From: Dhillonvirus LM40P1
Sequence record: OZ035811.1
Length of the DNA: 45,013 nucleotides
Direction: 5' to 3' (one strand)
Made by a program: the position numbers and the translations under genes. Below the pieces are notes generated by a model. The model searched no databases. It had not been told where the DNA came from and was given only the letters and a program-made list of their open reading frames with translations. This document shows, in pieces, positions 5,796 through 44,705 of this stretch. Position 1 is the first letter of the stretch, and each line of letters starts with the position of its first letter.

Positions 5796-5825
5796 TGTTG
5801 TTTCCTCGTTTGTTGGTGTGCAACC

Positions 5826-5854
5826 AATATATTGCAACCAATTAGCCAATGCAA
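5826..5854 (-). promoter_or_regulatory. sigma70-like promoter (TTGCAT-17-TATATT) with ATTGGTTGCA repeats
   Basis: -35/-10 hexamers at 17 bp spacing on minus strand, about 30 bp upstream of the 5795 start; same architecture as four other leftward promoters. Confidence 0.5.
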
Positions 5855-10758: not shown

Positions 10759-11121
10759 ATGGCTAAACAATCCCTTTTCACCCTCGACCCAAAACCGACT
10801 TTCAAGCTGCCGATTGAAATCCCGCGTCCGGGCGAGAAAGAGCCGGGTAAGCTGACTTTCACCGTCCGCCACCGTCCGATCGACGAGTTCTCGCAGACCA
10901 TGCAGGAGACTGAACGCAAGCTGTCAGAGTATGACCAGAATGACCCGGACGGCTTTAACGTTATGGTCGAGGCCATCATGCATGTGGCTGAAGGCTGGAA
11001 TCTGCCGGATGAGTTCACTGAAGAGAACGTACGCCGCCTGGTGGTGAACTATCCGCGTGCGTTCGGCGTGTTCCATACGTCGTACTATCTCGAATTGATG
11101 GGCTTGCGTGAAAAAAACTAA
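10759..11121 (+). CDS. tail assembly chaperone (lambda G-like)
   Basis: ATG at 10759 with GGAGAG SD; ends at slippery A AAA AAC followed by stop; position before tape measure. Confidence 0.6.
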   Translation: MAKQSLFTLDPKPTFKLPIEIPRPGEKEPGKLTFTVRHRPIDEFSQTMQETERKLSEYDQNDPDGFNVMVEAIMHVAEGWNLPDEFTEENVRRLVVNYPRAFGVFHTSYYLELMGLREKN

Positions 11122-11435
11122 TTGAGGCGGCGCGACGCTTCTATGGTCCGCCGCCACCGTCCGAAGACCTTGCCGCTAGTTTATGGGGTGCGGCCCCCGA
11201 AGATATTTGTCCGCCAGTTGCATTATGGCCTGATAACGTACAGGTCGTTGCCGTTTTCACTGACTGCTCAACGCAGTGGCGCACCGGTTTTAACGGCGCA
11301 TACGGCATCGACTACGGCGTGCTGGAATGGCTATTTAAAATGCACGGCATCGAAAATGAGAAGCGAGCTTTTAAAGATATCAAGTTAATGGAGCGTATTG
11401 CACTCGACGAAATTGCAGCACAACAGGCCGGGTAA
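10759..11435 (+). CDS. tail assembly chaperone frameshift fusion product (lambda GT-like)
   Basis: -1 frame continuation to TAA at 11433-11435 with protein-like composition; the same-frame ORF after the stop is Arg-rich junk. Confidence 0.5.
11112..11118 (+). other. programmed -1 ribosomal frameshift slippery heptamer A AAA AAC
   Basis: 0-frame codons GAA AAA AAC TAA; -1 frame is open from 11112 to 11435 and encodes a sensible protein. Confidence 0.55.
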
Positions 11436-11448
11436 TTCCGGCCTTTTT
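11426..11448 (+). terminator. rho-independent terminator
   Basis: GGCCGG...CCGGCC hairpin followed by TTTTT. Confidence 0.55.
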
Positions 11449-11452
11449 CATA

Positions 11453-11576
11453 GCGGGACGTCCTGCTTGTCCCGTTTTTGTCCCGCTGTCCCGCCCCGCC
11501 AAAAACTGCATACCTATTCAGAAATACTGCATAAAACCAAAACGGGACAAAAACGGGACAAGCAGGACGTCCCGCC
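11453..11576. repeat. inverted repeat pair (about 32 bp arms) built from TTGTCCCG/CGGGACAA iterons and GGGACGTCC
   Basis: 11453-11484 is the reverse complement of 11543-11576. Confidence 0.7.
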
Positions 11577-11599
11577 TCAAAAGTGCATATCTATGCAGT

Positions 11600-11772
11600 T
11601 TTCATGCATAAAACGAACGGGACAAAAACGGGACAAACTGCAAGCGGGACAGAGCGGGACGTCCCGCCGTCCCTGCCAGAGCTGCCGCGGGTTTCAGCCG
11701 ATCGGGACAGGCGGGACAAAGCCCAGTCTTTCAGACTAGACGGGGGTCAATGGCCCCCTCCGTCTGAGACTG
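11600..11772 (+). repeat. non-coding module copy 1: TGCATAAAAC, CGGGACAA iterons, GGGACGTCCCGCC palindrome, GCGGGTTT box, conserved hairpin
   Basis: About 170 bp with roughly 80 percent identity by eye to 39959-40131; iterons at 11 bp spacing. Confidence 0.7.
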
Positions 11773-11839
11773 AATAAGGTTGGTTGCAAAATGACTGATA
11801 CAATACAAACGGCAACTTGCATAAAAAGGGGACTGCATA

Positions 11840-14482
11840 ATGGCAGATCAAGCGGCAGGCATCACGCTAAAGGCGGATGTTGCACAAATCAGAACGGCGA
11901 ATACTGTGCTTGATTCATTCGCACAGAAATCCGAGAACACAGAAAACAAGGTTAAGAAATTAAACAACACCCTCGGCAACTCTAAAAAGGTGACGAGTGA
12001 TGCCGCTGGCGGAATGGAAAAGCTGGCGAACGAATCGCATCGAGCAGCCGATGGCATGACGAAACAGGAGCGACTCGCCAACCGGTTAGGCATGTCGACC
12101 AAAAACCTGGGCTTTGCCTCGCGTAACGCCGCATTCCAGTTACAGGATATAGCGGTTACGCTTGAGATGGGTATGCCGGTGCACCGCGTCATGCTTCAGC
12201 AGTTACCACAGCTTACGGGGGCGTTCGGTGGGTTTGGTAACACGCTGCGTTATGTTGCTGGCTTCCTCGGCCCAGTAGGGATCGGAATTGCAGCACTAAC
12301 GGCAACGTTAGGCGTAGGGGTGGCAATTACGTCACGTGCCGAAAACCAGGTAGCAGCGCTTAACAAGACGCTGGCGCTATCCGGTAACATTTCCGGCCTA
12401 ACTGCAAACCAGATCCTGGTGCTATCCGAGAACGCCGAGCGCATGGGCGGGTCGTTCCGCAAGACGCGTGACACAATCCAGGCGCTGGCGGCGGCGGGTG
12501 TGAAAGCGGGTGCAGACTTCGGCACGCTGGCGAAAGTGGTGAATGATTTTGCGAAGGCGTCCAGCCAGCCGATCGAGGATGTGGTCGCGGCGGTGGCGAA
12601 GCTGTCTACCGACCCGGTAGGTGGCTTGCGAGCATTGGCTGATAAGTATCACGTAGTAAACGAAGCGCAGATCCAGCAGGTGCAGTCACTAGTGACGGCT
12701 GGTCGCGAAACCGAAGCGGTGGCGCTGGCTAACAAAACAGCCGCAGCGTCGTTTACCACTATGACCAATGAGATCAAGTCCAACATGGGTACGCTTGAGC
12801 GGTCGATGAACGTCGTTACATCGGCAGCTAAATCTATGTGGGATGCCATCCTGGATGTTGGACGCGCGCAGTCCTCGAATGAGTCAGAGATGAAAGCGCG
12901 TGAATCATTGCAGCGACTGACCACGGCTTACTATGCCGAGATGAAAGCGGTAAACGCTGCCGGTGGGGTGATGACCGAAGCGCAGAAAGCGCGTATTAAC
13001 ATGCTTTACAGCGAACTGGTCGCCCAGGAGAAGGTGGTGGCGTCGCTCACCATGCGCAACCGTGCCGAGCGGGACAACGCCAGCGCCGCGGACGCAGCAG
13101 CAAAGGCGAACGAAGAGGCAAACCGCACCGCCCGCGACCGCGCTGCGTTTGAGAAGGAGTACGCAACCAACGCGAAGAGGCGCGCCGACGAGATCGCCCG
13201 CCTCAATTTGCTTAATAAGCGCGGCGTGATTGACGAGAAAGAGCTTGCCGAGGCGGTGAAGCAGGTAAACGAGCGTTACAAAGACCCCGCCCCGAAGAAG
13301 GCCGCCGCTGTTCGAGTCGATGCCGGGCTGAAAATGCTGGAAGTAGCACGGAGCGAACTGGCACAGCTTCGTGAGTCTGGAAAGCAGATCGAAGCCAACT
13401 CCTCGACGCAGACCCGAACGCAACGCGCGCAAGCGGCCCTGAACAAGCTGATCGCGGATAATGAGCAGTTAATCGCCGCAAGCAAAGAAAGAGCACTAAC
13501 GGCAGCCGAAAAGCAGCAGATGGTCGAATTCGGACGCGTGAAGGAAGTACGCGAGCAGATCGTCGAAGAAGCCAAATTGCTGGACGCGAAAGAGAAGCAG
13601 GTCAAGGCGCACGCGCAGATCGACGCCTTCGTTAAGAACCAGAACGCCGAGCTAAAAGCCACCGCGGCGGGCTATGCGCTTTCCACTCGCGAAGCGGCAA
13701 ACCTGCGTGAAGAATTGCAGCTAATTGACCGCCTGAAGCGGGTGGGCGCTAGTGATACCGATATTGATCTGGCGGTGTCTAAACTGCGCGAAGTGCAGGA
13801 AGCACAGACCGGTGCTAACGCCTCACTATGGGATGGGTTCAGCCGTGGGCTTAAGGATAGCGTGGATGAAATGGGTAACGGCTATACGCAGATGGTATCG
13901 GCAACGAAATTTACATTCGGCGCTATGATGAACACGATGAATGAATTTTTCGAGACTGGTAAATTCAACGCGAAGGAAATGATTAAATCCATCCTGAGCG
14001 AATTTATCAAGCTGGCTACCTCGCAGGCGTTCAAGTCCGTAATCAACGCATTCGGCGGTGACGGTGGGAAGAATGGTCTGTTCGGGGCAATCTTCTCCGG
14101 TCTGACGAAGAATGCCGACGGTGGAGCGTACGCTGGCGGCAACCTGTCCGCATATTCCGGTCAGATCGTAAGCCAGCCAACCTTTTTCAATTACGGCGTT
14201 AAGGCGTTCGCTAACGGCGCGGGATTGATGGGTGAGGCTGGGCCGGAGGCCATCATGCCGCTGAAGCGCGGGCCGGACGGTAAACTGGGCGTTGCCGCAA
14301 GTGGGGCTGGTGGTGGTATCGTCGTGACAACGAACGTGAACATGGGTACAGGGCAGGCTGACACCAGCGTTAAAGGGACCGACCCGCGAATGGGGCAGGT
14401 ATTCGGCAAGCAGATCACGGAAGCGGTTAAGGCCGAAATCGTGAAAGCGACTAAACCAGGTGGAGTACTTTACAAACGATGA
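11840..14482 (+). CDS. tail tape measure protein
   Basis: 880 aa, Ala-rich, extended coiled-coil-type central region, Gly-rich C-terminal part; position after chaperone pair. Confidence 0.8.
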   Translation: MADQAAGITLKADVAQIRTANTVLDSFAQKSENTENKVKKLNNTLGNSKKVTSDAAGGMEKLANESHRAADGMTKQERLANRLGMSTKNLGFASRNAAFQLQDIAVTLEMGMPVHRVMLQQLPQLTGAFGGFGNTLRYVAGFLGPVGIGIAALTATLGVGVAITSRAENQVAALNKTLALSGNISGLTANQILVLSENAERMGGSFRKTRDTIQALAAAGVKAGADFGTLAKVVNDFAKASSQPIEDVVAAVAKLSTDPVGGLRALADKYHVVNEAQIQQVQSLVTAGRETEAVALANKTAAASFTTMTNEIKSNMGTLERSMNVVTSAAKSMWDAILDVGRAQSSNESEMKARESLQRLTTAYYAEMKAVNAAGGVMTEAQKARINMLYSELVAQEKVVASLTMRNRAERDNASAADAAAKANEEANRTARDRAAFEKEYATNAKRRADEIARLNLLNKRGVIDEKELAEAVKQVNERYKDPAPKKAAAVRVDAGLKMLEVARSELAQLRESGKQIEANSSTQTRTQRAQAALNKLIADNEQLIAASKERALTAAEKQQMVEFGRVKEVREQIVEEAKLLDAKEKQVKAHAQIDAFVKNQNAELKATAAGYALSTREAANLREELQLIDRLKRVGASDTDIDLAVSKLREVQEAQTGANASLWDGFSRGLKDSVDEMGNGYTQMVSATKFTFGAMMNTMNEFFETGKFNAKEMIKSILSEFIKLATSQAFKSVINAFGGDGGKNGLFGAIFSGLTKNADGGAYAGGNLSAYSGQIVSQPTFFNYGVKAFANGAGLMGEAGPEAIMPLKRGPDGKLGVAASGAGGGIVVTTNVNMGTGQADTSVKGTDPRMGQVFGKQITEAVKAEIVKATKPGGVLYKR

Positions 14483-21946: not shown

Positions 21947-21975
21947 AATATAGTGCAACCAATACGTGATTGCAA
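21947..21975 (-). promoter_or_regulatory. sigma70-like promoter (TTGCAA-17-TATATT) with ATTGGTTGCA repeats
   Basis: Minus strand reads ATTGGTTGCAATCACGTATTGGTTGCACTATATT, about 30 bp upstream of the lipoprotein start. Confidence 0.55.
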
Positions 21976-21998
21976 CCAATTTATGAGGAGTTTTCGCT

Positions 21999-26330: not shown

Positions 26331-26359
26331 AATATAGTGCAACCAAATACGGATTGCAA
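26331..26359 (-). promoter_or_regulatory. sigma70-like promoter (TTGCAA-17-TATATT) with ATTGGTTGCA repeats
   Basis: Minus strand ATTGGTTGCAATCCGTATTTGGTTGCACTATATT. Confidence 0.55.
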
Positions 26360-26363
26360 CCAA

Positions 26364-27791: not shown

Positions 27792-27820
27792 AATATAATG
27801 CAACCAATCTCGCAATGCAA
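27792..27820 (-). promoter_or_regulatory. sigma70-like promoter (TTGCAT-17-TATATT) with ATTGGTTGCA repeats
   Basis: Minus strand ATTGGTTGCATTGCGAGATTGGTTGCATTATATT. Confidence 0.55.
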
Positions 27821-27825
27821 CCAAT

Positions 27826-34271: not shown

Positions 34272-34367
34272 TTTCCAATTCCTCATTTCACATGTATCGG
34301 GGTTATTAGAAGCCACCCCGTCCGGCTTGGTTGCTAATGTACTTGGTTGCGTTTCCGCGGTCAAGTG

Positions 34368-37262: not shown

Positions 37263-37556
37263 GTGAATACGACTAAATTGAATGCTTTGTTAGATATGGT
37301 TGAGAATGGTGTTGATGTTGGTGCGGCCCGCGACGCTATTAACGTTGCGTTCAAAGACCTGGCCTACAAACTGGAATTACTGAACGGTACGGCAGCGAGC
37401 AAGCTGCAAAAGCATAACGAAGAAATGGAAGAATACAAAAAGCAGGTTATCAGACTGCGCGAAGAGGGTAAGTCCTGGGCAATGATTGCCGAGTTAACGG
37501 GTATTAATCAGAGCACCGTTCGTTCTTGGGTACGCAATACTAAAACTGCTAAGTAA
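37263..37556 (+). CDS. HTH DNA-binding protein (candidate transcription regulator)
   Basis: GTG start with GGAGAC SD; C-terminal helix-turn-helix-like segment SWAMIAELTGINQSTVRSW. Confidence 0.5.
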   Translation: MNTTKLNALLDMVENGVDVGAARDAINVAFKDLAYKLELLNGTAASKLQKHNEEMEEYKKQVIRLREEGKSWAMIAELTGINQSTVRSWVRNTKTAK

Positions 37557-37568
37557 GGAATTGAGACA

Positions 37569-39833
37569 ATGAGAAATATAGAATTTGCGATCACACCCCC
37601 CGCTAAGAAAGGCGAATCTGCGGTAGCTCATAACCAGTCCATGACTACCGCCGAGTTTTTCGAATTTATCCAGGATGCACCGGTAGTGTCGTCAGTTTGC
37701 ATTAACGGTACTGAAGATAAAAAAGAATATGCGCGACGTAAGCGTAAAGGCGACGGCATTGTGGCTACAACCGCCGATGGCACGCGTAAAAAGACTGGCG
37801 TGGTTAGCCGCTCGATCCTGTTCTTCGACCTGGACCGTGCTGACAACCGCACACTTACCCGCTGCCGCAGGGCTTTCCGCAAGTCCGGCCTGGAATATGT
37901 CTACCACACCACCACCGGCGACCGCCACCCGTTGAAAGACGGCAAGCGCTGTGTGCGTTTCCTGGTGCTGACAAACAAGCCAGTTCCGGCGGAAGACCTG
38001 GGCCGCGCGCAGGCTGCACTGCTTGAGCAACTGGGTCTTACCGACGCGGGCTTTGATGACTGCTCGAAAGACACAAACCGCCTTATGTACCTGCCCCACC
38101 AGCAGGCTAAGGTCGAGTGCCATGAAGGTAAACGCGCTAACGTGCGTCGTCTGCTTCGCCTGGCTGACAAGATGGGTATTGAGCAGGAAACGTTTCGCCG
38201 TGAACTGGTGCAGGGCGACGACGAGCAGATGAACGGCATCCTCGACTGGTGTTTCCAGGCTGGTTTTGAGCCGTTACCATCCGGGCGCGGTTATGAAGTA
38301 CCGTGCCCAAACGAACATCTGCACTCTGGTGAAGGGTCTACCGCTATCATGCTTAAGGATGGCGAGATTCGTTTCAAATGTATGCACACCGGCAACGGAT
38401 GCTGTTCTGAACTGAACAAACACCAACACCTGGCGCTGCGAATGATTGGTATCCCGGATATTTATAACGTGGAGCCACACAACATGTCACGCAAACAGAT
38501 CTCGGCAATCCTGCCGGGTCTGGACGACGAAGAAGTGGACGCGCAGTACGAGCACATGGTTGACCTGGTGGGTGAAGGTGAGGATTATGCGTCCTGTACT
38601 GACGCAGACCTGGAAGACGAACCGACGGCGTTGTTCTCGAAGCACGACCCGATCATCGAAGGTCTGATTAACTTCAAATCGACCTGGTACGCAGCGGGTG
38701 AGTCGAACATTGGTAAGTCCTTCTTTGTCATGGGTCAGATGGCTGCCGTTGCCGCTGGCATCCCGTTCGGCGGCGCGAAGGTCGTCCAGTCCCATTGCTT
38801 CTACTTCGATGCGGAAGGTGGCGAGGCGTCACTGCAACGTAAAGAAGCGTTGCAGATTAAATATGAGCACGACCTGGACAAGCTGCACATTATCGACCTT
38901 CAGGCACGCGGCTGGGATATTACGAGCAAGTCCGGCCTGCGTGAAGTCATCAGCTTTATCAACCGCACCGCGGATGGTGAGCCGGTCGGCCTGGTGGCGT
39001 TCGACTCCCTTAACCAGACCGTAGCGCTGCGTTCGGCTGACGCCAAACCGTTCGATGAGAACAACGCCAGCGATATGGGTGAGATTGTCAAGGCGCTGAA
39101 AGCCATTGCGGAAAACACAGGCGGCAGTGCGGGCGTCATCCACCACCCGGCGAAGGGTGCAAACGGCAGCAGATCCCCGCGTGGGTCCGGTGCGCTACAT
39201 GGCGCGGTGGATTCTGCATTCTTCCTGGAACAGCCAGACGAGAATCAGCCAGGCCAGCTTAACCTCTATCATGAGAAAGCCCGTAACGGCGTGAAACAGG
39301 GTCCGCGCGGCTTCGTGCTACTGAAGTGCAAAGTGTCCATTAACGAGCGCAAGTCCGACACGTTCGAAGCGCACCAGTCCACTAACCCTGGTCCAGACTT
39401 CGGCGATGTAGTTGCCGGTTGGGACGTCAAGCCAATCCAGGCCACCCCGCGTGATGAGACTCTGTACCTTGTACCGGTAGCTCTGGCCCCGTTCGCTATC
39501 GAACAGGCGAAGGCCGCGGGCAAGCAGGCTGTTAAGGAAGAAAACCCCGCCGGTCCGCGCAATGAAAAAGAGAAAGTGCTTTACGCAGCGCTCGAAGCGT
39601 TGATGGAAGAGAATCCGGGACACCATGGCTTCAGCAAATCGGCAATCGTCCGCAAAGCCGGACTGGCGAAAGGTGGCACATCGACGAAGCCAATAGACGA
39701 TATGCGTGAGCGCGGAATCATCGGCTTTTACAAAGACCCGGACACCGGGGCCATTTACGGGTCGTCGAATCTGGTTATCAATTCACAAATACCTATGCAA
39801 TTGACGGCGACGGATGATGATTTGAAAGATTAA
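37569..39833 (+). CDS. primase-helicase (N-terminal primase-like domain, zinc motif, RecA-type ATPase)
   Basis: Walker A GESNIGKS, Walker B-like VGLVAFDSL, Cys/His cluster CPNEHLH...CMHTGNGC. Confidence 0.65.
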   Translation: MRNIEFAITPPAKKGESAVAHNQSMTTAEFFEFIQDAPVVSSVCINGTEDKKEYARRKRKGDGIVATTADGTRKKTGVVSRSILFFDLDRADNRTLTRCRRAFRKSGLEYVYHTTTGDRHPLKDGKRCVRFLVLTNKPVPAEDLGRAQAALLEQLGLTDAGFDDCSKDTNRLMYLPHQQAKVECHEGKRANVRRLLRLADKMGIEQETFRRELVQGDDEQMNGILDWCFQAGFEPLPSGRGYEVPCPNEHLHSGEGSTAIMLKDGEIRFKCMHTGNGCCSELNKHQHLALRMIGIPDIYNVEPHNMSRKQISAILPGLDDEEVDAQYEHMVDLVGEGEDYASCTDADLEDEPTALFSKHDPIIEGLINFKSTWYAAGESNIGKSFFVMGQMAAVAAGIPFGGAKVVQSHCFYFDAEGGEASLQRKEALQIKYEHDLDKLHIIDLQARGWDITSKSGLREVISFINRTADGEPVGLVAFDSLNQTVALRSADAKPFDENNASDMGEIVKALKAIAENTGGSAGVIHHPAKGANGSRSPRGSGALHGAVDSAFFLEQPDENQPGQLNLYHEKARNGVKQGPRGFVLLKCKVSINERKSDTFEAHQSTNPGPDFGDVVAGWDVKPIQATPRDETLYLVPVALAPFAIEQAKAAGKQAVKEENPAGPRNEKEKVLYAALEALMEENPGHHGFSKSAIVRKAGLAKGGTSTKPIDDMRERGIIGFYKDPDTGAIYGSSNLVINSQIPMQLTATDDDLKD

Positions 39834-39842
39834 ATTTTGCGC

Positions 39843-39921
39843 GCATTGGTTGCCAATATGGTTAATTTGTGCGCGCATTGGTTGCCAGATTGGGTATTAA
39901 ATCTATATCGCATTGGTTGCC
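39843..39921 (+). repeat. three direct repeats of GCATTGGTTGCC at 32-35 bp spacing
   Basis: Copies at 39843-39854, 39875-39886, 39910-39921, each followed by an A/T-rich hexamer. Confidence 0.75.
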
Positions 39922-39958
39922 GTGTAGTGCTAAATAAGTGAATAGTTATGCAAAATAA

Positions 39959-40131
39959 GTGCATAAAACAAACGGGACAAAAACGGGACAAACGACAAAC
40001 GGGACAAAACGGGACGTCCCGCCGTCCCCCTCAGGAGTGGCGCGGGTTTGAGGCAAACGGGACAAGCGGGACAGACCACAGTCTTTCAGACTAGACGGGG
40101 GGTATTGTCCCCCCTCCGTCTGAGACTGCAT
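39959..40131 (+). repeat. non-coding module copy 2: TGCATAAAAC, CGGGACAA iterons, GGGACGTCCCGCC palindrome, GCGGGTTT box, conserved hairpin
   Basis: Matches 11600-11772 in element order; hairpin stem conserved while loop differs (tattgt versus tcaatgg). Confidence 0.7.
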
Positions 40132-40288
40132 AAAATCTCTGGTTGCATAATCAACGGCAGCATAGTGAAAAATGCGGCGGGGGTAGATCTCGGCAACCAA
40201 TGCGGGTTGAAGAGTGGAGAGTGAAAAATGCAGTTTGGTAATGACAACTGATAGCGATCAGCATTTTCATGCGCGTGATTAATATTGG

Positions 40289-40317
40289 TTGCATTCGTCC
40301 TGCCAGGGTGTTAGATT
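40289..40317 (+). promoter_or_regulatory. sigma70-like promoter (TTGCAT-17-TAGATT) flanked by ATTGGTTGCA motifs
   Basis: ATTGGTTGCATtcgtcctgccagggtgTTAGATTGGTTGCAC about 30 bp upstream of the 40346 gene. Confidence 0.5.
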
Positions 40318-40345
40318 GGTTGCACACCAACATGAGGACTGAACG

Positions 40346-40651
40346 ATGAGAGCATTAATCTGGAATTACACAATGGCTGTGGCGAAGCTGTACGAAGCGA
40401 AGCACACAAACGGCAACGCAGACGACGCGCGCCAGGCTGTCATCCTGGCCCAGCAGGGAATCATGAACGCGTTCGACAATATGTTTGCCAGCCTGGACGA
40501 ACTGGAACCGCTGCGCGTGGCAATCTGCGAATATGCGATGGCATTTGCCCGTGAACGCCTGGCATACCGGTTTGGTATCGGGAAAACGGCAGTGGCTAAC
40601 ATCGCCCGCATTCAGGCCCAGCGTGAGCTGCACGCCATACTCGCGAAATAA
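40346..40651 (+). CDS. hypothetical protein
   Basis: ATG with GAGGA SD; 101 aa. Confidence 0.5.
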   Translation: MRALIWNYTMAVAKLYEAKHTNGNADDARQAVILAQQGIMNAFDNMFASLDELEPLRVAICEYAMAFARERLAYRFGIGKTAVANIARIQAQRELHAILAK

Positions 40652-40660
40652 GGGGCCAAA

Positions 40661-43562: not shown

Positions 43563-44705
43563 ATGCACCCTCAAACCAAAATTACAGACGAGCAGTTGAT
43601 CGCCGAAATCCAGGCGGGAACGACCGCGAAAGATATTGCTAAGAAATACGGGATTGCACTGCGCAATGTTTATATGCGCAAAGCACGCTTATCTAAAAAG
43701 GGGATTGGGCACGGTAACGATGCCGTAATTCGTAAGCGGGTTGCCGATGGCTTCGGCGTGAAACGTGTATCCGCCCTGGTGCGTGGCAATGGCGAAGAGG
43801 TCATGTCGTGGGTTATCACCGAGCAGGACAAAGAGCGCCAGCTTGAGGCGATGCGTGCAGTGCTGGACGGCATGAACAGCGAAATCACACCGGCAGCACC
43901 CGTAAGCGCGCCACCAGTTCCGATCCAGGCGCTGGACCTGCTAAACCTGTACACCGTGTCCGACTTCCACCTGGGGATGCTGGCATGGGGAGAAGAGACT
44001 GGCGAGGATTGGGATATGGCTATTGCCGAAGACCTGTTCTACCGCTGGTTTGTCGAAGCCTTTGCCCGCGCCCCGGATGCCGGAACAGGCGTGATTAACA
44101 TCCTCGGTGATATGGCCCACTTTGACAGCCTGGATGCCGTTACCCCCGCAAGTGGTCACGTCCTGGATGCTGATACCCGCTATCAGAAGCTGGTGCGCTA
44201 CATGATTCGCATGGTCCGCCACGTTGTCGAACTGGCATTGCAGAAACACCACAAGGTTAAACTGCTAATCGTGCAGGGCAACCATGACGAAAGCGGTATG
44301 ATCTGGCTGGCTGAGATGTTCGCTACGCTGTACGAGAACGAGCCGCGCGTTGAGGTGGATACGTCGCCGGATGTCTATAAGATGGTCCAGCACGGTAAGA
44401 CTACGCTGTTCTTCCATCACGGGCACAAGGCTAAATTCGACGCTATCGAGCCGGTCATGATTTCGAAATTTCGTGAGGCGTTCGGATCCAGCCAGTACAG
44501 CTATGCTCACGTAGGCCACCTGCACCACCAGAAGATTATCGAATCGCGCAACATGATTGTTGAACAGCACCGCACGCTTGCCGCGAAGGATGCCTACGCC
44601 AGCCGAGGCGGTTGGATGAGCGGACGCAGTGCAAACGTGATAACCTATAGCGCGAACTACGGTGAAGTAGCACGCTTAACCATTAGCCCGGAGATGTTGA
44701 AATGA
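43563..44705 (+). CDS. HTH-containing metallophosphoesterase (calcineurin-like)
   Basis: Phosphoesterase motifs in order DFH, GDMAHFD, GNHDE, HHGH, GHLHH; N-terminal HTH-like segment. Confidence 0.6.
   Translation: MHPQTKITDEQLIAEIQAGTTAKDIAKKYGIALRNVYMRKARLSKKGIGHGNDAVIRKRVADGFGVKRVSALVRGNGEEVMSWVITEQDKERQLEAMRAVLDGMNSEITPAAPVSAPPVPIQALDLLNLYTVSDFHLGMLAWGEETGEDWDMAIAEDLFYRWFVEAFARAPDAGTGVINILGDMAHFDSLDAVTPASGHVLDADTRYQKLVRYMIRMVRHVVELALQKHHKVKLLIVQGNHDESGMIWLAEMFATLYENEPRVEVDTSPDVYKMVQHGKTTLFFHHGHKAKFDAIEPVMISKFREAFGSSQYSYAHVGHLHHQKIIESRNMIVEQHRTLAAKDAYASRGGWMSGRSANVITYSANYGEVARLTISPEMLK

Follow-up and report, generated by a model that had tools for sequence, protein, structure and literature searches.

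Introduction

In P4, the alpha protein combines primase and helicase, the latter of the SF3 type, with a C-terminal winged-helix origin-binding domain, and ori and crr share a short iteron. The oriV of RSF1010 (IncQ) comprises iterons, an AT-rich region and the hairpins ssiA and ssiB, and is served by the separate proteins RepC, RepA and RepB'. In lambdoid phages iterons and the DNA-binding domain of the initiator O are exchanged together, leading to mosaic initiators with matched origins; ori-lambda lies inside the O gene and O is neither a helicase nor a primase.

How does the locus described here compare with these systems? The DNA analysed (the window, 45,013 nucleotides in all) is a complete ~45-kb Dhillonvirus genome with the small terminase gene as its first gene. 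Like P4 with ori, crr and alpha, it has one multidomain primase-helicase-winged-helix protein and, at two separate places in a single genome, clusters of one iteron (11454-11717 and 39973-40072); paired clusters are also found in Edwardsiella phage eiAU. The iteron differs from that of P4, being CGGGAC in the window, the two sites are 17 or 28 kb apart, and the helicase is of the RecA/RepA type (AAA_25) as opposed to SF3. Homology to alpha was seen neither in the PDB sequence search, in which the helicase-primase yielded only a weak match to RepA, nor among the listed fold matches. With RSF1010 oriV the window shares a RepA-type helicase and a RepB'-type AEP primase, but the three functions are fused in one polypeptide, recognition of the iterons apparently falls to the winged helix instead of a RepC, and each element has one long hairpin where RSF1010 has two ssi signals on opposite strands; neither a separate RepC-like binder nor a pair of ssi hairpins was found, and no separate candidate protein tracks the iterons. 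The swapping of iteron and initiator DNA-binding domain together between related phages resembles lambdoid O and ori-lambda, but in the window the array follows the gene and is duplicated. By analogy, P4 ori/crr with alpha and RSF1010 oriV with RepA/RepB'/RepC seem the best functional counterparts, the homologies that define either system being absent; this uncharacterised element fits best into the class of iteron origins.

Dhillonviruses and the related Guernseyvirinae belong to the coliphages and Salmonella phages that are isolated most frequently, and they are used in therapy and biocontrol. No mapped replication origin or initiator specificity was found for either group in the searchable literature. 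The comparison below offers such an assignment, namely a candidate initiator domain (the C-terminal winged helix), a putative recognition sequence for each clade and probable origins.

A Non-Coding Insert in the Tail Module

The gene for the tail assembly chaperone G (10759-11121, + strand; Pfam Phage_TAC_4, E=1.2e-24) is extended by a -1 frameshift at the slippery heptamer A_AAA_AAC (11112-11118), from which the -1 frame stays open up to 11435. This T part of GT (11112-11435, + strand; stop codon 11433-11435) is 64-99% identical among relatives. As the tape measure gene (11840-14482, + strand; Pfam TMP_2, E=1.5e-43, and Tape_meas_lam_C) begins with the ATG at 11840, 404 bp are intergenic (11436-11839). 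An earlier note on this DNA had described these 404 bp as a non-coding insert, and both the coordinates and the comparison of orthologues agree with it. The note had also assumed that the G/GT genes normally abut the tape measure gene, and this is so in Serratia phage Smarc2, which has a related chaperone and a different replication module (GT end 11651, tape measure start 11655), as well as in Salmonella phage SE1, whose tail module has no gap between the two genes. Since GT abuts the tape measure gene in Smarc2 with its similar chaperone, the insert is unusual for such tail modules.

Could the insert conceal a gene? In 15 Dhillonvirus orthologues of the gap the longest open stretch switches frame and strand, and the lengths of gap runs in their alignment are 1 mod 3 in 79 cases, 2 mod 3 in 21 and 0 mod 3 in 4. 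With no frame kept and indels rarely a multiple of three, a hidden ORF or frameshift was rejected; that relatives might carry the region as coding sequence, which the earlier note had named as the observation that would overturn its reading, was not borne out in these 15 orthologues. The ~1.7 kb around the gap are 99% identical to Dhillonvirus LM40P1 and to Escherichia phage Ioannina and align as one piece at ~85% identity with ~150 other Dhillonvirus records. The insert is found at the same place in 158 of 158 Dhillonvirus records.

Anatomy of the Insert

Two arms of 33 nt (11453-11485 and 11543-11575), 100% complementary and 57 nt apart, form an inverted repeat that had been reported previously as 32 bp long with essentially the same coordinates (11453-11484/11543-11576). 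The repeat consists of oppositely oriented copies of the iteron CGGGAC(A). The importance given to it as the key feature, with a potential cruciform, was misplaced, as the arms are not conserved at the site in other Dhillonviruses, where perfect palindromes or inverted repeats of 17-20 nt, or a 33-nt repeat at 88%, are found instead. Judged by comparison with these relatives, the perfect 33-nt repeat is a lineage-specific arrangement of the same iterons, and the feature conserved across Dhillonviruses is an array in which CGGGAC iterons of either orientation surround AT-rich spacers.

The left iteron block (11452-11493), which includes the left arm, has the near-palindrome GCGGGACGTCCTGC, followed by three minus-strand iterons (11469, 11480, 11488). 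AT-rich spacer 1 (11494-11542, ~30% GC) holds the box TGCATACCTATTCA (11507-11520) and a TGCATAA half-box (11528-11534), and the right arm (11543-11575) has direct iterons at 11543 and 11554, 11 bp apart, and the near-palindrome GCAGGACGTCCCGC. Spacer 2 (11576-11617, ~32% GC) is a tandem copy of spacer 1 at 77% identity with the box TGCATATCTATGCA (11584-11597) and TGCATAA at 11605-11611. The core iteron array (11618-11717), which is homologous to 39973-40072, contains iterons at 11618, 11629 and 11645, a palindromic pair at 11655/11661 (GGGACGTCCC, a palindrome made by some iteron pairs), the conserved CGCGGGTTT at 11686-11694 and a further iteron pair at 11703/11712.

Within the window, iteron clusters occur at two sites only. 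CGGGAC is present 38 times in the window as compared to 25 expected, with 14 copies in the 264 bp of 11454-11717 and seven in 39973-40072, and CGGGACA 18 times as compared to 6.3 +/- 2.3, with ten copies in 11468-11718 and five in 39973-40073. Pairs of CGGGACA spaced by 11 bp (11468/11479, 11543/11554, 11618/11629 and 39973/39984) provide the short direct repeats at helical-repeat spacing of an iteron origin, and the AT-rich region that adjoins the iterons in such origins is present too: the spacers at 11500-11542, 11577-11617 and 39925-39972 have 30%, 32% and 25% GC against 53.6% for the window. The spacer boxes follow the pattern TGCATA-NN-TAT(T/G)CA and are succeeded by a TGCATAA half-box at a distance of 21 bp, and the full palindromic box TGMATANNTATKCA occurs three times in the window (0.01 expected), always in the gap or its paralogue. 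The GC skew of the window yielded no origin signal and is uninformative in this respect, since it follows gene orientation and hence the direction of transcription.

Boxes of the more general form TG(A/C)ATA-NN-TAT(G/T)CA, accompanied at 21 bp by another box or half-box, are kept across clades with differing iterons, in the window at 11507-11534, 11584-11611 and 39939-39966 and 3' of the helicase-primase gene in the loci L067, L055 and L064. These palindromic boxes may therefore be read by something conserved, such as a factor of the host or a different part of the helicase-primase. Their sequence and 21-bp spacing resemble those of paired E. coli ARG boxes.

The Paralogous Site and the Helicase-Primase

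A second copy of the element, not noticed in the earlier note, is found at 39939-40133. It comprises the box TGAATAGTTATGCA, iterons at 39973, 39984, 40000, 40010/40016, 40058 and 40067, CGCGGGTTT at 40041 and a hairpin at 40079-40128 (z = -5.2). Positions 39935-40135 are 84% identical to 11590-11790 over ~190 bp, and the sub-elements follow each other in the same order, that is, AT-rich palindromic boxes, iterons 11 bp apart, the GGGACGTCCC palindrome and a hairpin of ~50 nt. The copy in the tail module is the richer one: it has 14 iterons versus seven, a hairpin of its own and two further AT-rich spacers, which carry palindromic boxes. On the circular map the two sites are separated by 17 or 28 kb.

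The paralogue begins ~100 bp 3' of the stop codon of the helicase-primase gene (37569-39833, + strand; PHROG 3228, Pfam AAA_25), the product of which we propose as the iteron-binding initiator. This single protein of 754 aa unites an AEP primase (aa 1-~200), a Zn motif, a RepA-like helicase (aa 355-531), a winged helix and an acidic tail, as indicated by the AEP fold, the AAA_25 match and structure models; models and fold searches predict the winged helix at aa ~666-737 (nt 39564-39779). The Cys/His cluster between primase and helicase is invariant (C246, H252, C271, H273, C279, H285, H287), and the acidic C-terminal tail (D-x-D-L) is conserved and reminiscent of tails that contact polymerases or SSB.

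The record of Sodalis phage SO-1 (GQ502199) flags a 'region A' (11214-11597) between gp16 and the tape measure gene and a 'region B' (40178-40657) after the helicase/primase gene gp48, and mentions direct, inverted and palindromic repeats as well as the similarity of region A to region B. By position and sequence these regions are direct orthologues of the two sites of the window. The record holds an annotation note only, with no binding protein named and no comparison across clades, and no paper on SO-1 regions A and B turned up in the literature that could be searched. In addition, the stretch from the stop codon of the helicase-primase gene to the core of region B in the window has three direct repeats of GCGCATTGGTTGCC (39843-39922), which are kept in SO-1 and other Dhillonviruses and have no counterpart in region A.

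Conserved Architecture With Changing Iterons

In other Dhillonviruses region A consists of a palindromic module, CGGGAC-aag-CGGGACGTCCCG-tttt-GTCCCG, present twice and each time with an AT-rich spacer behind it, and of a region-B-like core downstream of the second spacer. The annotators of WF5505 labelled the first palindromic iteron pair a terminator, and some records annotate small hypothetical ORFs inside the region. The present assignment would explain this recurrent annotation problem, in which spurious small ORFs are annotated across a 'gap' in the tail module. Two records, MG065648.1 ('Campylobacter phage A144') and OQ221563.1 ('Acinetobacter phage NJ01'), are ordinary Dhillonviruses with ~85% identity over the region, and their host labels look doubtful.

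Beyond the Dhillonviruses, the architecture is kept after the same gene with different iterons in Guernseyvirinae, Eiauvirus and metagenomic relatives. The helicase-primase of SE1 (Guernseyvirinae) is 45% identical to that of the window, and directly 3' of its gene is a single element with the iteron GGGGAGA, in which boxes (GTGAATAGTTAT..) are followed by iterons 11 bp apart, a palindromic pair, ..GGGTTTG.., further iterons and a G/C-rich hairpin. A second cluster is absent from SE1, and since Guernseyvirinae such as SE1 manage with one copy, a second copy is not generally needed for this replication system. In eiAU (Eiauvirus) there are gaps at both positions with a common 55-nt block built on a repeat of its own, TCGCCCCG. 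Among IMG/VR loci, 40 with a full-length homologue carry clade-specific iterons in the 560 bp 3' of the gene (CGGGACA, ACTCGCAA, GGGGAGA, CGGACAA, TCCGACA and AGGGATA); in one IMG/VR clade with different downstream genes no iterons were found in these 560 bp.

The GT/tape measure gap seems to tolerate or attract gene insertions, as eiAU (L006, 42140-42900) and a divergent Dhillonvirus-like contig (L021, 2830-3300) have a minus-strand ORF there, each with its own TTGGTTGC-type promoter. The GenBank record of eiAU is linearised inside this gap.

Proposed Recognition of the Iterons

Which protein reads the iterons? Each iteron type is paired with a distinct start of the third helix of the C-terminal domain of the helicase-primase (KGGTSTK, KGGDRYK, GGGN(Q/S)RRR, DGGRRRP or AGGNRRP). 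Especially informative are pairs of loci with nearly the same protein core and different iterons. L050 and L067 compared with L055 have 96% identity in the core and 44-45% in the C-terminus, and L058, L060 and L061 compared with L063 have 98-99% in the core and 48% in the C-terminus. Pairs with the same iteron have a C-terminal identity of 55-100%, even where the core is only 70-83% identical, and within the Salmonella-phage clades of 63-100%. The iteron type is thus seen, in the loci compared, to track the C-terminal domain and not the core of the protein. Part of this co-variation across clades is confounded by phylogeny, which the recombinant pairs lessen, though they come from few lineages. 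Moreover, L060 and L063 lose DNA similarity ~300 nt ahead of the stop codon and regain it immediately past the hairpin, and these limits imply that the exchanged unit consists of winged helix, iterons and hairpin. That these three travel together is of use in interpreting mosaicism and the incompatibility or interference of relatives that infect the same cell, and for phage engineering it shows what to keep or to co-transfer when modules are swapped.

Other proteins were considered as binders. The XRE-type HTH protein encoded upstream was rejected because it is identical in L067, L055 and L068 with their three iteron types, and with it its counterpart in the window, the product of a small HTH gene at 37263-37556 (HTH_23 / sigma-70 region 4-like). 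Conversely, the first small gene downstream was rejected because it varies among loci with a single iteron type. The comparative data support the view that the winged helix of the helicase-primase has its cognate sites in the CGGGAC repeats and that the insert in the tail module adds a second full array of them.

Hairpin, Terminator-Like and Promoter-Like Elements

The earlier note, which had proposed a secondary-structure prediction for the gap, had missed a significantly stable, conserved hairpin of ~50 nt, a long imperfect palindrome at 11724-11772 of the form CAGTCTTTCAGACTAGACGGGGG-loop-CCCCCTCCGTCTGAGACTG. Folded as DNA, it has a z of -4.0 on the + strand and -3.1 on the - strand. Among 21 distinct Dhillonvirus copies the 5' arm is invariant and the loop variable, and one and the same 56-nt variant of the hairpin may be located at site A of one genome and at site B of another. 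A hairpin of different sequence is found at the same relative position in all clades examined; in seven clades its stability exceeds that of shuffled sequence (z from -2.8 to -5.9), and the stems differ between clades while complementarity is retained. These values come from folds of individual sequences, which were used because RNAalifold on a MAFFT alignment of the hairpins of all clades recovered five pairs only, indels having misaligned the arms. G.T wobble pairs number ten on the minus strand versus four on the plus strand, a bias that is not significant. A search of the whole window against Rfam 15 gave 0 matches at the gathering score. Salmonella-phage clades have a T-rich run directly 3' of the long hairpin, which in these clades could be a terminator, judging from this run.

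The apex of the hairpin holds an inverted copy of the clade's own iteron in several Salmonella-phage clades (L062/L063, L060), for example TGTCGGA in the TCCGACA clade and TGTCCG in the CGGACAA clade, and the loop of the region-B hairpin of the window holds TTGTCCCC, one mismatch away from the iteron.

At the upstream border of the gap, a consensus scan detected an intrinsic-terminator-like hairpin on the + strand (11425-11449; AGGCCGG-gtaa-TTCCGGCCT), with the stem-loop at 11425-11444 and TTTTT directly after it. The terminator placed by the earlier note at 11426-11448 is therefore present, but it is not a conserved part of the insert: it is shared by the lineage of the window, L020, L021 and eiAU and absent from most Dhillonviruses.

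On the other side of the hairpin, an extended -10 promoter-like element, TGATACAAT (11796-11804, + strand), which the earlier note had also overlooked, is situated 36 nt upstream of the tape measure ATG and is followed by a ribosome-binding site and the ATG. It was found via conservation alone, CTGATACAAT being invariant in 15 Dhillonvirus orthologues; a sigma-70 scan in which both the -35 and the -10 hexamer were required returned no promoter match in either region.

A Possible Mode of Action and Its Alternatives

What could such an element do? The earlier note had taken the odd insert for a regulatory or replication element, and a replication or regulatory role is still the best reading. More specifically, we hold with somewhat better than even confidence that the insert is a cis-acting array of sites for the helicase-primase, a duplicate of the element 3' of the gene for this protein, which would serve as a second origin or loading site joined to a promoter. 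It could be imagined that the C-terminal winged helix recognises the CGGGAC(A) iterons and that the opposed iterons, flanking AT-rich spacers of ~40 nt (25-32% GC), delimit a zone of unwinding and helicase loading, on which the bound protomers would assemble the helicase. As the iterons of region A face each other across the spacers, loading might occur head-to-head and lead to bidirectional unwinding, by analogy with viral initiator-helicases. The ~50-nt hairpin would be extruded as a structural signal and may be the site of priming by the AEP domain, as are ssiA and ssiB for RepB'. In this way the insert would act as a second replication origin or, alternatively, as an origin-accessory site like crr of P4. 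In addition, the gap would be a boundary of transcription, with a terminator in this lineage and the conserved extended -10 element as the point of restart for the tape measure and distal tail genes. Physical binding, unwinding, priming and origin activity are what we infer from the anatomy, paralogy, conservation and co-variation observed in the sequences; no binding or initiation experiment with a phage of this group turned up in the literature searched.

Could the tail copy be merely accessory? As an enhancer resembling crr, it would bind the helicase-primase and loop to the true origin, and initiation would not take place at the tail copy. This would fit with the copy beside the helicase-primase gene being ancestral and the sole one in SE1-like phages, with the same iteron in both clusters, as in ori and crr of P4, and with the identical hairpin variants at either site, which suggest sequence exchange or functional coupling. 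Yet the tail copy is the more elaborate one in iterons, spacers and hairpin and seems to miss no part of an origin, and the distance of 17 or 28 kb far exceeds the ~4.5 kb of P4, which makes such a division of labour unlikely in our view, if still worth taking seriously. Purely transcriptional control is a more improbable alternative. The repeats would then be operator or activator sites for a promoter at ~11796-11804 and the hairpin a terminator or attenuator, in line with the terminator-like hairpin at 11425-11449, the invariance of TGATACAAT in all orthologues, the location of both copies ahead of + strand gene blocks, the T-rich run after the long hairpin in Salmonella-phage clades and the terminator label in WF5505. 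Such control would leave unexplained why it is the helicase-primase winged helix, and not the HTH regulator next to it, that the iteron type follows, and why the ancestral copy resides at the 3' end of the helicase-primase gene; furthermore, phased iterons beside AT-rich spacers are the anatomy of an origin, and the promoter is separated by the hairpin from the last iteron, which is at least 80 bp upstream.

A structured RNA, the hairpin being transcribed as a small RNA or as an element of a 5'-UTR, comes to mind in view of z scores from -2.8 to -5.9 relative to shuffled sequence in seven clades and of stems that change between clades and remain complementary. The palindrome folds about equally well on both strands with no significant wobble bias, no Rfam family reached the gathering threshold, the conserved promoter is downstream of the hairpin, and an RNA role accounts neither for the iterons nor for their link to the winged helix, so that we give this reading very little credence. 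Even less probable, close to negligible, is a mobile element or MITE, a packaging site, a hidden ORF or an assembly artefact. The arms look like terminal inverted repeats, small hypothetical ORFs are annotated in some records and the eiAU record is cut inside the equivalent region, but the arms are simply iterons, no ORF is conserved and the indels are not in multiples of three, and the terminase genes are 11 kb away. The position is fixed in 158 of 158 Dhillonvirus records, 72,556 plasmids and 20,395 E. coli genome records gave no match, so that the dispersed copies in host or other replicons expected of a MITE were not seen.

The helicase-primase site array thus remains the preferred reading. 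A broader picture, which we put forward tentatively as a possibility that has the odds against it, is that of a virulent siphovirus with a two-origin system, or an origin with a distant enhancer, in which one helicase-primase is brought by its winged helix to arrays 17 or 28 kb apart. One array would be part of the tail operon, so that initiation of replication and restart of late transcription would share a 400-bp module, and the matched cassette of winged helix, iterons and hairpin would constitute a portable unit of specificity recombining between phage genera.

Additional Observations on the Genome

A second repeated motif, (A)TTGGTTGC(A), occurs 28 times in the window as compared to eight expected. 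Its sites (5820-5840(-), 21955-21978(-), 26339-26362(-), 27800-27823(-), 30778(-), 34328-34350(+), 37066(+) and 40286-40323(+)) are mostly pairs spaced by 14-17 bp (31 bp at 40286/40317), and the pairs overlap sigma-70-like promoters (TTGCAA-17-TATATT) upstream of early-region genes. They look like a promoter family with a repeated operator, for which the small HTH protein encoded at 37263-37556 is a possible binder. Many copies of the motif are also present in eiAU (GCAACCAA), and its analogue in the Salmonella-phage clades is TGTTGGCTG. Finally, the 380-aa protein encoded at 43563-44705, which in SO-1 is labelled 'putative transcriptional regulator', has very weak N-terminal HTH matches (E about 0.06-0.07) and a sub-threshold match to Metallophos_2, a calcineurin-like phosphoesterase family (E=6.8e-5; 23.4 bits versus a cut-off of 27).
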